Origin: Octopus sinensis
Lineage: Eukaryota
DNA: 64,000 nucleotides
Assembly: GCF_006345805.1 (NCBI RefSeq)
Contig: NC_043018.1
Location: 27,838,001-27,902,000, forward strand
Reading direction: 5' to 3'
The notes beneath the pieces are model-generated. The model had not been told where the DNA came from. It was given only the letters and a program-made list of their open reading frames with translations, and did no database searches. Positions 151 through 59,176 of the stretch are shown here, piece by piece (within the stretch, counting starts at the first letter, position 1; each line of letters begins with the position of its first letter). Made by a program: the position numbers and the translations under genes.

Positions 151-273
151 CCGACAGCTGTTTCTGGGGGGATCAGGCATCCTTTATAATGTTGACAGAT
201 GTAATTCATCACAATATACAACCTGTAATGGAAGTAAATAAACACTAGATGAATTCAGCTTCCGTCTTCAAGG
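151..273 (-). ncRNA. Degenerate hammerhead-like motif with ~100-nt stem II insert
   Basis: Minus strand reads CC-TTGAAGA-CGG...(~100 nt)...CCA-GAAAC-AGCT-GTC-GG. Stem III is palindromic (ACAGCTGT) with a GUC site. C3 is changed to U and stem I has only 2 bp. Confidence 0.4.
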
Positions 274-540
274 TGGAGAGATAAAAATCTGACATTTCAG
301 ATCACGATGGAAAGAAGTTTAAATGCGTAATAGATAAAGTGGAGGTAAGTAGTAATGGGGAAAGGAGAAAGGAAGTTAGTAGCTCGGTGTGGGTGTAGGA
401 AGTGTTAAAACAGAGAGAGAGAGAGAGTACATACATATATATACGTCTCTTACAGACGTATAATATGTATGAATCACCCTCTGTCTCTTTATGTATTTAT
501 GAATGCATATATATATATATATATATATATATATATATAT

Positions 541-811
541 AGTAGAAATATGTTACGAAAAGAAAATATAACATACACGTGGAAATGTAAGGGTAAAATA
601 TGAAAAATCAACGAAAATGCATATTGCAAATAGAAAAAGGCTATTTATGACAGGTAACGACAAATATATACATTTAGATTGACTGAAGTAGTAATACGAG
701 TCATAAAAGTCATTATTATGAGATGATTATAAGATGATAATAAAGTAAGAGAACAAAACGAACCAATAGTTTACGCAAAGCTATTCATCGTTTGAACAAC
801 ACCAGTTAATA
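541..811. repeat. Dispersed ~250-270-bp element within (TA)n, copy 1
   Basis: Clearly homologous to 57868-58118 (AGTAGA[A/C]ATATGTTACGAAAAGAAAATATAA...CAAAGCTATTCATCGT). Both copies are flanked by (TA)n. Confidence 0.85.
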
Positions 812-1590
812 CTATATATATATATAAATTTAATACACAACCGAAAGAGCTTCTAATAGTTTCATGCTTTTATGATACTTTAGCTAAGCACATTTATAAA
901 ATACGTCATGTATTTCCAAAAAATGTAAACTGGTATATGCAAAAGTGGTTGGCGTATTTTTTCTTAAACCACTTTCGGATATACTGATGTACTTTTGCTT
1001 ATGAATTTCATTATTTTAGAACTCTGAGGTAACTTCAGCTTCAGAAGCCATCGAGCTAATCAAGTATGATTAAACCACTGAGCTAGTCGAATGGGCAAGT
1101 TTCTGCGTCTCGACAGTTACAACATAGAGTGAGCATTTGGTGTGACTAGCGATTCATAATATTTTCCATGTCGGGGCAGCAGCTGTATGAAACTTTCAGT
1201 GGATGTCTATTAAAAATTTTCTTGTATCTATGGTTATGTGGGAAATGCTTATCAATAAACTTTCAAAGGAAAAGATGGGACAAGCAATATAATCTTCCTA
1301 GTTCTGTTTTTAGGCTTCATATTTTTAAGTATAGGGTTGTTATCTTTTCTTTGAAACCACATGATATTCTCTATCAATAAATGAAAAGTAGTTTTTTTTT
1401 TATTTTCTACTTGCTTCAATCATGCGGTCAAGCTGGGGCACAGCTTGCAAGAGCGATCCTAGTCGTTATTTTAAGTCTGGAACTTATTCAACAGACTTCT
1501 TTTTCCCGAACTGTTTGGTTACAGGGGTCATAAACAAACCAACACCAGTTGGCAAGTGTTGACAGTCTTTCACAAAGACGCACCCGCCAT

Positions 1591-2090
1591 ATCAATCAAT
1601 CAATCAATCAATCATTTAATTTATCTATCTATCTATCTATCTATCTATCTATCTATCTATCTATCTATCTATCTATCTATCTATCTGTCTGTCTGTCTGT
1701 CTGTCTATCTGTCTGTCTGTCTGTTTGTCTGTCTTCCGTCCGTCCGTTCGTCTGTCGGTCTGTCTGTCTGTCTGTCTGTCTCTCTCTCTCTATCTATCTG
1801 TCAGTCTGTCTGTCTGACTGTCGTCTGTGTCTGTCCGTCCGTCTGTCTGTCTGTCTCTTTCATTATCTATCTATCTATCTATCTATCTATCTATCTATCA
1901 ATCTATCTATCTATCTATCTGTCTGTCTGTCTGTCTGTCTGCCTGCTTGTCTGTCTTCCGTCCGTTCGTCTGTCGGTCTGTCTTTCTGTCTGTCCGTCTC
2001 TATCCAGCTATCCATCTATCTATCTATCTATCTATCTATCTATCTATCTATCTATCTATCTATCTATCTATCTATCTATCTATCTATCTA
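1591..2090. repeat. Compound (ATCA)n/(ATCT)n/(GTCT)n microsatellite
   Basis: Direct reading. It explains the IYLS/VCLS ORFs. Similar arrays lie at 6751-6945 and 23911-24215. Confidence 0.95.
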
Positions 2091-2551
2091 GCTCAGCTCA
2101 GCTCACGTTATACTATCCATCGCCATTCCCACGACACCAACTCACCGATTCCCTCCCCCAGCCTTACTCACCCTACTACTATCCACCCCACCCCCACAGC
2201 CCTCACTGAAGTCTCAACCATTTCAAAACAACAGCTTTATTTAGACAATTCTAACCATCTGACAACAGTCGTTAAGCATCAAGCGTTATATTTTGTGTTC
2301 TTTCCTTCTTAACTAATCAAGCAAAAGAATGGACAGGAAGTGGCATGGAAGGAGTGGTGGGTCGAAATGAAACGACTGGCTGGCAGGTTGGCTGGCTGGC
2401 GAGATGGCTGGATGGCTGTTCGGCTGGTCGGTTGGTCGGTTGGTCTAACCCTATGGGTTCTCGATCACATTCTTTATCTATAGACCGCTTAGATTACATT
2501 TTTTTCAACTTGATGACCCCCCCACCGTAGCTATTCGATGGTTAAAAACTA

Positions 2552-2756
2552 GTGGAGGTAAATGGCGTAGTGGTTAGAGCAGCGGACTCGCGGTCGAGGG
2601 ATCGCGGGTTCGAATCTCAGACTGGGCGATGTGTGGTTTATGAGCGAAAACACCTAAGCTTCACGCGGCTCCGGCAGAAGGTGATGGCGAACTTCTGCTG
2701 ACTCTTTCGCCACAACTTTCTCTCACTCTTTCCTCCTGCATCTTGCAGCTCACCTG
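2552..2756 (+). mobile_element. tRNA-derived SINE family B, 3'-truncated
   Basis: A box TGGCGTAGTGG and B box GGTTCGAATC are present. Homologous to 8801-9095 and 33952-34236. Confidence 0.85.
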
Positions 2757-2774
2757 TTTACTATTTTGCTTGCA

Positions 2775-56587: not shown

Positions 56588-56741
56588 AATTTTGCCTGCT
56601 ATCAATTTTTACTTTCACACACACACACACACACACACACACACACACACACACACACACACGCATACACACACACACACACACAGAGAAATACACGGCG
56701 GCATGTATATGTATACATTCACAGATGCACGTAATTTATTC

Positions 56742-57107
56742 GTTTACTTGTATCAGTCATTTGCCTGCGGTCACGCTGGAGCACCGCCTTAAGCAGTATT
56801 TTATTAGAACAAATCGACCCCCACAACTAAGTTTTGTTTTAAAACCAAGTACTTATCCTATGGGTCTCCTTGCCGAACCGCTAATTTACGGGGACGTAAA
56901 TACACCAACACCGGTTGTCATGCAGTCATGAAGGGACAATCGCAGAAACAAATGAACACACACATACACACACATATGCGACGGGCTTCTTTCAGTTTCC
57001 GTCTACCAAATCTACTCAAGGCTTTGGTGGCCCGAGGCTCTGGTGGGACTGAACTCAGAACCATGTCGTCGGGAAGCAAGGTTCTTAGTACACAGGCACG
57101 CCTGCGC
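56742..57107 (-). mobile_element. SINE family A, diverged
   Basis: Reverse-complement homology to 3188-3597. Confidence 0.8.
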
Positions 57108-57867
57108 TTAGTGTAAGACGCTTACAACACCTAGGTTTACCAATCGGTCACCAATCTATGTCCTAACTCTGGTGATCGGGTGAAAGCGTGTTTGTGCAGA
57201 AATAATAAACAACTTACGTTGGGATTTGCTATACTTAAAGCAAAATGTTCCTCAAAGAAATATATCATGGAAGATTATACTGGCTAAGTTGTTGGGGCAA
57301 CTCACATCTCGGTATACTTTGTCGTTTATTGAGCTGTGCTCGAGTGCAACCAAATGCACCACTAACCTTTTTTTTTAGATATTTGGTGCTGAAAAACTTT
57401 AATACTATTTAGCTTGGTATAATGTAATAATTTTAATTTTATTAGTAATCTATCTTTTGCATGTTGTTAATAGTCGGAATCTAATTAATACTGATATCAT
57501 TGTAACTACTTGGGAGAGTCCATGGCATCACAGACCAACATACCACCACCACCACCACCACCACCACCACCACCAAAACCACCACCACCACCACCACCAC
57601 CATCACCACCGCCACTACCATCATCATCTTCATTACTAATAACACTAACAACATCGTTACTGTTATATTGTTAAATGATAGTAAGATTCGTATGTACTGA
57701 CAAAAACACTCACAACACACACGTATATATATATATATATATTATATATATATATATATATATATTATATATATATATTATATATATATATATATATATA
57801 TATATATATATATCTAATATATATATATATATTGATTATATGTATATTATATAATATATATATATAT

Positions 57868-58118
57868 AGTAGACATATGTTACGAAAAGAAAATATAAAA
57901 TACACGGAAATGTAAGGGTAGAATATGATGAAAAATCAACGAAAATGCACATTGCAAATAGAAAAAGGCTATTTATGACAGGTAACGACAAATATATACA
58001 TTTAGATTGACTGAGGTAGTAATACGAGTCAAAAAAGTCATTATTATGAGATGATTAAAAGATGATAACAAAGTAAGAAAACAAAACGAACCATGGTTTA
58101 CCCAAAGCTATTCATCGT
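57868..58118. repeat. Dispersed (TA)n-embedded element, copy 2
   Basis: Homologue of 541-790. Confidence 0.85.
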
Positions 58119-58811
58119 ATATATATATACATATACATACATGTATATGTGTGTGGGTGTATGCATGTATGTATGTATATATGAATGTGTATGTGTCTGT
58201 TGTGTGTGTGGTGTACTAAACCACGATAGAATAAAAAGGCGATGATCCTGACTGGCAGCCATTTTTAGGACACCTTAACTGGAAGGATCTACCTTAATAT
58301 CTCAGACAACTGGCAGTTTCTCTCTCTCTCTCTCTCTCCCTCGCTTGCATACTCTTCCTCTCACTTCTCTCTCATCTGTCTCTGTTCTTTCTTTCTCTCT
58401 CTCTCTACCTCTTTACCTCTGTGTCCGTCTCTGCCTGTCACTGCCTCTCTCCTAATCTCCGTATTGCATAAATATCCTACCTAATGGCCACATGTCAAAG
58501 AAAGAATTTTTGCTGAGGAGTGGCATCGCTGGAGTCGATATTGTTGTTATTGTTGTTGCCAATTAACGTAGTTGTTGTTGCTGTTGTTGCTGTAGCTGTT
58601 GTTGTTGTTGTTGTTGTTGTTCTTCTTCTTCTTCTTCTTCTTCTTCTTCTTCTTCTTGGTGTGATTGCGGTTGTTGTTGGCTTCTTCTACTCTTCCCACA
58701 CACTCTTCACACACACACACACACGCACGCATGCATGTATGTAAGTATGTATGTATGTATGTATGTATGTATGTATGTATGTGCGTGTGTATATGTATGT
58801 ATGTATGTATA

Positions 58812-58980
58812 AAATGCCGGTCAAAATGCTTAGCGGCATTTCGTACGTCTTTACGTTCTGAGTTCAAATTCCGCTGAGATCGTCTTCTCTTATAAATCCT
58901 TCGTGCTCGATGAAATAAGTACTAATTGAACACTGGGATCCCAAGAACTTACTGACCTTGTGCCAAACTGTGAAACCAAT
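58812..58980 (+). mobile_element. Decayed SINE family D
   Basis: AAATGCTTAGCGGCATTTCGT...GTTCTGAGTTCAAATTCCGC. Confidence 0.7.
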
Positions 58981-59082
58981 ACACATACACACACGCACAC
59001 ACACACGCACATACACACACACACACATATATATGTGTGTGTGTGTGTTAATCGATGTGTACAGTATTATATATATTCTTTG

Positions 59083-59176
59083 CGGCCAATATCACCAATC
59101 AGTTTCGCACTAAGGGTTCAACGGAGTGTTAGGTGACGGTCCGATTGCGTAACCCTGCGCTCATCAGAGATAGCCG
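59083..59176 (-). ncRNA. Decayed hammerhead ribozyme with long stem II
   Basis: Minus strand reads CGGCTATCT-CTGATGA-GCGC-AGGGTT...AACCCT-TA-GTGC-GAAAC-TGATTG-GT-GATATTGGCCG. The core and stem II are intact, but the cleavage nucleotide appears deleted. Confidence 0.7.

Follow-up and report, generated by a model that had tools for sequence, protein, structure and literature searches.

A 64,000-nt stretch of the Octopus sinensis genome (contig NC_043018.1, positions 27,838,001 to 27,902,000; G000:C22:27838001-27902000), referred to here as the window, contains a series of hammerhead ribozyme (HHR)-like motifs that are best explained as minimal type I hammerhead sequences, each contained in the 3' end of a 5'-truncated copy from one of seven Penelope-like element (PLE) families that encode an endonuclease, a reading with a probability of about 0.88. 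Elements of this type are already established and call for no new name, and the location of such motifs in PLE pseudo-long terminal repeats (pseudo-LTRs, or pLTRs), the prevalence of single truncated copies, and the U3-A8 swap in the core are all already known (PMC4209133). The part that appears to be new is two lineage-fixed, unusual predicted catalytic cores, U6 in family F6 and A3-U8 with G-U-A-A in family F7, which are candidate new variants. The window (GC ~36%, in a genome of 2.72 Gb) is dense in microsatellites, with no evident host gene among its frames of at least 100 amino acids.

A type I hammerhead-like arrangement is present at all eight stretches where the original prediction had placed one, with the palindromes it had named, and runs from stem I through a 7-nt core, stem II, and GAA to a palindromic stem III, the cut-site nucleotide N17, and stem I again. 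The motif at 18261 is on the forward strand and the other seven are on the reverse strand. The count of eight is one too low, as one more, at 24623-24683 and recognized from its relative in locus L249, lies between two (TA)n arrays and had been overlooked. An Rfam gathering-score scan of the window gives no hammerhead matches. A strict descriptor (CUGANGA or UUGANAA, GAAA, a palindromic stem III, and a stem I of at least 4 bp) finds two window sites, compared with a mean of 0.03 (maximum 1) in 100 block-wise dinucleotide shuffles of the window; a relaxed descriptor, composed after the motifs had been viewed, finds five sites against a mean of 0.44, and 1 of the 100 shuffles reached five. The relaxed-descriptor site at 50926 is a false, low-complexity match, and candidates at 9895, 23194, 41508, and 45227, which have no relatives among the fetched loci, were dropped.

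The family-level proof is stronger than the descriptor counts, in that every motif represents a repeat family's majority sequence, and this together with the strict count indicates that the motifs are real and more frequent than chance predicts. That they are chance matches in AT-rich repetitive DNA could be argued from the empty Rfam scan, the late tuning of the relaxed descriptor, and the one shuffle that equals its count, but the strict count, the 19 motifs found in 430,200 letters of flanking sequence (shuffle mean 0.35), and the same near-3'-end position of the motif in seven PLE families stand against it, and it is refuted by the family and flank counts, its probability being next to nil.

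Repeat families and their coding sequences

Searches of the genome with each site, for which 40 candidates were scored and 25 to 30 fetched (the copies most like the window, so that majorities lean toward it), place the eight sites in seven repeat families with 938 to 2,687 first-look candidates each. The elements are thus not all unrelated as had been supposed, since 756-793 and 58084-58118 belong to the same family (F7) and are 93% identical over 254 bp. Best-match identities are 93 to 97% for F3, F4, F5, and F7, ~90% for F6, ~83% for F8, and 72 to 81% for F1. Stems I and II and the palindromic stem III are present in all families with little within-family variation, and the 3-8 pair occurs in three Watson-Crick forms across families (C-G, U-A, and A-U). 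Compared with the type I core consensus (C3 U4 G5 A6 N7 G8 A9 ... G12 A13 A14, A15.1-U16.1, and H17) or a published variant of it, the majority cores of F1, F5, and F8, which are canonical with long stem II inserts, fit the consensus, as does the ninth site, and F3 and F4 fit the published U3-A8 variant. F6 (C3-G8 with U6) and F7 (A3-U8 with G-U-A-A for G-A-A) fail it yet keep the hammerhead fold. The whole family motif is kept in 28/30 fetched copies of F4, 24/30 of F3, 12/30 each of F6 and F8, 10/30 of F5, 9/30 of F7, and 2/25 of F1. In three of the eight window copies the motif is damaged by comparison with its family: 151-273 has U for C3 opposite G8 and has lost 7 nt after the cut site, 58084-58118 has a broken stem II and a stem I reduced to 3 bp, and 59083-59176 has a G at cut-site position 17, a change by which minimal hammerheads are strongly impaired (PMC3884650).

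All seven families have longer copies that extend upstream into a GIY-YIG-type endonuclease, which is the last domain before the 3' untranslated region (UTR) in each family. Reverse transcriptase (RT) motifs are seen for F3, F7, and F8 and the RT thumb region for F4. The GIY-YIG frame of the window matches upstream and on the same strand in most F3 loci, 11/30 F4 loci, and 4/30 F7 loci, inside sequence common to the copies, and long copies of F3 and F7 also carry RT frames. The links for F6, F8, and F1 come from searching the genome with upstream pieces. In F6, a GIY-YIG-like frame lies upstream in L251 and L264 (~800 bp shared; 2 of the 25 upstream loci); a reading of F6 as a fixed-length unit like a short interspersed element was rejected because this search extends the family by 800 bp. 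In F8, the RT and endonuclease are in the same copy as the hammerhead (L199/L226), RT-like sequence is present in L226/L239, and the endonuclease piece matches 16 of the 20 upstream loci. The endonuclease C-terminus is upstream of F1 in L271 (the L073 copy), L278, L280-284, and L287. F5 has a low-complexity 3' UTR of ~2 kb or more, with an endonuclease frame in one of three long stretches (L292:2437-2694), where it is abutted by an inverted piece of F5's own tail. Pfam GIY-YIG matches are above cut-off for F4 and F7 (29.5 bits in F4 copy L125), and a longer-protein search with the F8 RT piece gives a single match, a UniRef protein of Octopus bimaculoides with 56% identity over 57% of the query, which carries no clade name.

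The C-terminal endonuclease in all seven families rules out membership of the Naiad/Chlamys group, in which it is N-terminal and there is no canonical HHR. By the motifs described for PLE clades (PMC8557442), F3, F4, F6, and F7 look Neptune-type, although they are also compatible with Nematis, and F1, F5, and F8 look Hydra-type. Translations of the first four contain the linker and C-x-x-C/His residues (partly mutated in the sole F6 frame), and like Neptune-clade PLEs they combine a Cys linker (CX4CxxC) before a GIY-YIG domain with internal C-x-x-C and His, (TA)n targeting, a tail, and inverted 5' pieces (PMC8557442); they differ in their compact cores, which are U3-A8 twice, A3-U8 with an insertion, and U6. 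The Hydra-type marks, identified by eye in decayed and frameshifted copies, are CxxC and CxH in F1, CxH in F5, and the CxCX5C linker only across two F8 copies; the F5 and F8 endonucleases match each other (E 4e-6). As in Hydra-clade PLEs, including Hydra-1_oBim of O. bimaculoides (Craig et al. 2021, PMC8557442), the C-terminal endonuclease appears to lack CCHH and to have CxxC/CxH near its end, and there is a canonical CUGANGA core, an 8- to 9-nt palindromic stem III, and a preference for (TA)n. The supplement of that paper already lists a Hydra PLE from an octopus that has a canonical hammerhead and prefers (TA)n. F1, F5, and F8 nonetheless have 55 to 105 nt between the core halves compared with ~12 to 25 nt in the Hydra motifs listed there, their motif sequences differ from the listed octopus motif, and F5 is set apart by its long 3' UTR.

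Insertion anatomy and motif load

The 5' ends of the copies are ragged, reflecting variable 5' truncation, and often have inverted pieces, two of which (F3 and F8) are in the window (Table 1); the two F8 pieces form a head-to-head structure typical of PLE insertions. An optional 3' tail starts at the element's own short TA run in 12/30 F3, 5/30 F4, and at least 5/30 F8 copies, and in 8/21 F5 copies among the rows listed (~70 nt); a PLE tail of the same type has been described (PMC11167929, PMC8557442), and in canonical PLEs with a C-terminal endonuclease it measures ~30 to 40 nt. At least four TA units are present at the 3' end of 29/30 F4, 28/30 F7, 27/30 F3, 20/30 F6, 15/30 F5, 12/30 F8, and 6/25 F1 copies, compared with a background of 454/4,100 (11%), such that five families are far above background and F8 and F1 less so. 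In line with the predicted (TA)n targeting, most families end in (TA)n, although sites 151 and 59083 do not abut such an array. Neighbouring PLE families share a (TA)n array at L161, L095, L057, L035, and L059 (in the combinations F3 with F6, F3 with F4, F7 with an F3-like element, and an F6-like element with F7), showing that the arrays collect successive insertions. In two copies the hammerhead is cleanly gone, namely F7 copy L296 (~1480-1520, -), where the motif is flanked by two short direct repeats that enclose the loss, and F6 copy L247.

What is observed directly is the family membership, the endonuclease (in some families also RT) sequence upstream of the motif, the uneven 5' ends, the inverted pieces, the choice of two 3' ends, and the (TA)n bias, and because of the coding links, truncation, inversions, tail, and (TA)n association, the motifs are regarded as truncated ends of coding PLEs and not as a separate class of short elements. 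This supports the part of the original prediction that saw pseudo-LTR remnants of several Penelope families with minimal, palindromic-stem-III hammerheads. It had also placed an autonomous-type relative at 10621-11727; this element is instead a 5'-truncated, frameshifted piece of linker and endonuclease whose 5' end carries 117 bp of inverted RT sequence. The same families resemble the minimal HHRs of PLE pseudo-LTRs (Cervera & de la Pena 2014, PMC4209133) in being type I with a palindromic stem III and the U3-A8 variant, in the extra base after A9 in several families, and in the many families per genome, mostly as single truncated copies. They differ in copy number (an estimated ~1e5 here and 4,000 to 9,000 in coelacanth and Xenopus) and in U6 and A3-U8 with G-U-A-A, for which the Results and Discussion of that paper give no counterpart.

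The short copies could alternatively be non-autonomous retrozymes, fixed units that self-cleave, circularize, and are copied by PLE enzymes. They are small and numerous and lack coding sequence over their own length, a few lie in same-strand pairs, and a preprint derives animal retrozymes from PLE pLTRs (10.64898/2026.07.22.740005); non-LTR retrozymes also have type I HHRs, a PLE origin, and copy numbers of up to 126,247 in axolotl (PMC7229834, 10.64898/2026.07.22.740005). However, retrozymes are non-coding tandem repeats of 150 to 450 bp with canonical HHRs that are expressed as circles (PMC7229834), and in the 150 rows listed out of 227 no site is covered by a tandem array of that period, nor does a self-BLAST of the window find a neighbouring second copy. 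All seven families reach endonuclease coding sequence upstream through ragged 5' ends, and even F6, fixed in length at first look, extends further. A retrozyme identity, and with it the earlier description of short non-coding units, is highly improbable.

The preferred reading, of truncated PLE ends, suggests a mechanism in which the RT-endonuclease protein would nick (TA)n and copy its own RNA from one of two internal start sites, giving a tail or none; both start sites and both outcomes are shown for a PLE of Anolis (PMC11167929). Target-primed reverse transcription would begin near the 3' end, mostly at (TA)n, and halt early to leave stumps of 130 to 1,000 bp. The element's own TA run may pair with the target; the Anolis element initiates without homology (PMC11167929). 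Because the hammerhead is ~30 to 210 nt from the 3' end, truncated copies would nearly always keep it, and this retention would explain the high motif density with no need for selection on copies. In a tandem full-length master, two hammerheads would pair via the palindromic stem III and cut the precursor RNA, probably aided by the RT-endonuclease protein, whereas a solo copy in a host transcript would have no partner with the same palindrome, and solo copies are predicted to be mostly inert. Selection would then act on master lineages and not on copies, keeping the stems while swapping the 3-8 pair among its three forms, and would have tolerated U6 in F6 and, in F7, an additional U behind G12. 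When two copies are folded freely, sites 10739 and 18261 give the textbook dimer, in which stems I and III are intermolecular. Most minimal HHRs in other genomes are likewise single, probably from truncated PLEs (PMC4209133).

Several observations weigh against assigning the motifs to truncated PLEs of this kind. The F5 coding link is from one copy and runs across insertions; none of the eight locus peptides has a Pfam RT match, and the F1, F5, F6, F8, and L107 (F3) peptides have no Pfam GIY-YIG match and were identified by tblastn and motifs. No intact full-length master or full-length open reading frame is present among the retrieved copies. The (TA)n bias of F1 and F8 is weak, and no 3' tail is seen in the F6 rows. 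The minimum-energy dimer is not the hammerhead fold for six of the eight motifs, and Hydra-type motifs with 10- to 12-nt palindromes could close a stem III of 3 to 4 bp as monomers. Finally, a second same-strand copy lies 0.15 to 1 kb away at L003/L004, L158, L167, L179, and L205 among the matches listed, so some dimers exist.

The load of these motifs was estimated from 538 de-duplicated 800-nt flanks (46 duplicates were dropped). The flanks contain 23 descriptor motifs, of which the 19 noted above are outside the family by which the locus was fetched (20 shuffles give the mean of 0.35), corresponding to one descriptor-intact motif per 23 kb (14 to 38 kb), a density that is inflated because the flanks adjoin PLE insertions and deflated because the descriptor recovers just 4 of the 9 window motifs. 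The load is large, as had been proposed, but probably nearer one per 14 to 38 kb, counting descriptor-intact motifs, than one per 8 kb. Extrapolation to the genome would give ~1.2e5 motifs (0.7 to 1.9e5) if the flanks were typical, which they are not. All 994 kb analyzed contain 97 distinct motif strings in 24 clusters. Published counts are 4,000 to 9,000 minimal HHRs in coelacanth and Xenopus (PMC4209133) and 126,247 type I HHRs in axolotl (PMC7229834 / bioRxiv 10.64898/2026.07.22.740005). Rfam is blind to these motifs, and a similar genome may hide ~1e5 hammerhead sequences in at least 24 sequence clusters, which would widen the natural core sequence space.

Such a load raises the prospect, advanced in the original prediction, that dispersed motifs form a functional load that cuts host pre-mRNA, either as monomers or paired in the same long intron. 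The flank density, the retention of the full family motif in most fetched F4 and F3 copies, and the long palindromes that could fold as monomers are compatible with it. Single minimal PLE hammerheads are however inactive in vitro and dimers weak (PMC4209133), the Anolis PLE hammerhead cleaves only with the element's protein and no RNA sequencing reads end at its cut site (PMC11167929), and cross-family dimers are not expected, as the palindromes differ between families. The low retention of the motif in F1, F5, F6, F7, and F8 (2/25 to 12/30) is what neutral decay predicts. By analogy with these systems, cleavage of host pre-mRNA would be unlikely, and a functional load of this kind is very unlikely overall.

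Variant cores of F6 and F7

When F6 is read with anchors outside the core, U6 is present in 28 of 29 copies and A6 in none. Relatives gathered by downstream sequence only (98 copies) include 75 with a stem II remnant, a filter that favours motif conservation, and these form four group majorities. Three have U6 and motifs identical at 34 to 36 of 36 letters, with differences only at positions 7 and 17; a fourth, more distant group has the normal A6. The flanks of the most distant pairs are identical at 78/112 and 73/111 letters, compared with 34/36 and 36/36 in the motif (Fisher p 0.0016 and 5e-6; 0.03 and 0.0006 with the downstream flank only). Pairing in the lineage, at 98.8% of 80 cells in eight hand-picked members, is suggestive only, and 1 of 10 pairs has a two-sided change, a covariation as high as which is seen in 15 of 500 shuffles.

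For F7, 12 loci were fetched by upstream sequence. In 10 of them the core is A3-U8 or departs from that form by a single letter, another carries a small core deletion, and the last has lost the whole motif. The extra U after G12 is present in 10 of the 11 loci with the motif, the exception being the otherwise mutated L302 with G-A-A-A. In F7 contigs from three runs with three organism codes, no alternative core letter reaches 8% among the 40 rows listed, and contigs of a fourth run do not cover the core; one F7-like contig has a compensated stem I pair together with a stem III mismatch. An alternative register, with A13U and a G inserted before the core, would entail more departures and a shorter stem I and is not preferred, and the core may possibly be read as G12U. 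A single 45-nt motif at L100 has a U6 core and a different 8-nt palindrome and forms its own cluster, and is possibly a second, independent U6 family.

Small PLE hammerheads reportedly cleave as dimers (Lunse et al. 2017), a study that may already include U6 or A3-U8 cores. Natural HHR variants include U3-A8, A6C, A6a, U13a, insertions 2a/2b, and a 2-bp stem II (PMC3088659), and A6C is slow and Mn2+-favouring, at a cost of more than 10,000-fold in Mg2+ relative to Mn2+ in one tested HHR (PMC7151607). Searches of an open-licence library gave no hammerhead report of A6U or A3-U8, and the published variants compared here include no U after G12, although supplements of PMC4209133 and PMC3088659 may hold such variants. 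The present families share U3-A8 and the 2-bp stem II with published variants (Perreault et al. 2011, PMC3088659; A6C, PMC7151607), but those are rare single loci, whereas a pyrimidine at position 6 and a U after G12 are here fixed in lineages with thousands of copies.

U6 in F6 and the extra U in F7 likely lower unaided catalysis. One explanation, confined to these two families and compatible with their identity as PLE ends, is that the motifs are dead ribozymes carried by inertia, catalysis having been lost in one master with no selection since. The cost of A6C, the lack of effect of HHR mutants on insertion of the Anolis PLE in vitro (PMC11167929), the success of Naiads that have no HHRs (PMC8557442), and the stem III mismatch in the F7-like contig with a compensated stem I are all consistent with this. 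The near identity of the F6 subfamily motifs relative to their flanks, the restriction of the two F6 differences to the free positions 7 and 17, and the two-sided nature of the F7 3-8 change argue otherwise, and the explanation is unlikely, if credible. A more tentative proposal, and a rather doubtful one, is that both cores are selected natural variants, nearly silent alone, that become active with the element's RT-endonuclease protein or with Mn2+. If true, such protein gating would let a genome tolerate ~100,000 hammerheads while its host RNA stays unharmed, and would reveal the purpose of PLE hammerheads. Cleavage is dispensable for insertion in vitro and a protein is needed for it (PMC11167929). 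F6 and F7, with core changes expected to cost activity and the rest of the fold kept, could provide a natural test of the role of PLE hammerheads in which the sister family with normal A6, represented by L185 and L279, serves as a control.

Elements and other features of the window

Table 1. PLE-derived elements and hammerhead motifs of the window (coordinates are window positions; clade types are those that the families appear to have).
Element	Position	Strand	Description
F1 (Hydra-type, old)	38..416	-	5'-truncated PLE 3' end; decayed copy; 74.5% to long copy L073, relatives 72-81%
F1 hammerhead	151..273	-	Core start 271, N17 at 153
F7 (Neptune-type)	541..811	-	3' end with variant hammerhead 756-793 (A3-U8 pair, G-U-A-A in place of G-A-A), core start 788, N17 at 761; 97% to long copy L294, which has RT and GIY-YIG frames
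F3 (Neptune-type)	10621..11611	-	Frameshifted linker and GIY-YIG fragment (frame 10875-11270 is free of stops and matches Pfam GIY-YIG at E 0.0023, short of the cut-off), 3' UTR, and hammerhead 10739-10778 (U3-A8, 2-bp stem II, 7-bp stem I), N17 at 10746; 95% over 1,016 bp to L115
Inverted 5' piece of F3 insertion	11610..11727	+	RT thumb region (tblastn); 99% to L115 586-702, opposite strand
F4 (Neptune-type)	14087..14484	-	3' UTR end with hammerhead 14136-14206 (U3-A8; inner stem I weak, U-rich), N17 at 14153; 95.6% to L126
F5 (Hydra-type, long 3' UTR)	18159..18386	+	3' end with canonical-core hammerhead 18261-18351, N17 at 18347
Ninth element	24519..24860	+	Has a (TA)n array on either side; hammerhead 24623-24683 with a canonical core, a near-palindrome of 12 nt, and a decayed stem II; N17 at 24677; L249 matches it at 82% over 187 bp and shows a two-sided change where stem I begins at its base
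F6 (Neptune-type, most abundant)	24975..25126	-	Minimal hammerhead 25061-25098 in the 3' end, with U6 in its core; N17 at 25066
Second F7 copy	57868..58118	-	Truncated within stem I at the 5' end, with a broken stem II; N17 at 58089
F8 (Hydra-type)	59050..59178	-	3' end with canonical-core hammerhead 59083-59176, G17 at 59093; 82% to L199
Inverted F8 3' end and tail	59184..59300	+	Opposite-strand matches of query 1-117; 59184-59230 at 85%

The window also contains other repeats. A repeat that is also dispersed outside the window forms an array of six 159-bp copies (91% alike) at 32667-33614, with no hammerhead by the descriptors and no Rfam match, and a further repeat between microsatellites at 24260-24491, in which no hammerhead is seen, is 71% identical to a stretch in L117. 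Broken fragments of long interspersed nuclear elements (LINEs) are present at 34964-35793, 36261-36674, and 55118-55423; the frame at 35392-35793 matches Pfam zf-RVT (E 9.5e-6, just under cut-off), which together with the sub-threshold GIY-YIG match makes up all Pfam matches of the window frames, and the other two fragments resemble restriction-like endonuclease ends. A stop-free, non-repetitive frame of 226 amino acids at 46714-47394 (+) has no Pfam match and is possibly a LINE ORF1 fragment. There is no Pfam match at 8470-8817, and the frames at 8470-9209 (-) resemble the C-terminus of a mariner transposase. An assembly gap of 100 N is at ~19185-19284.

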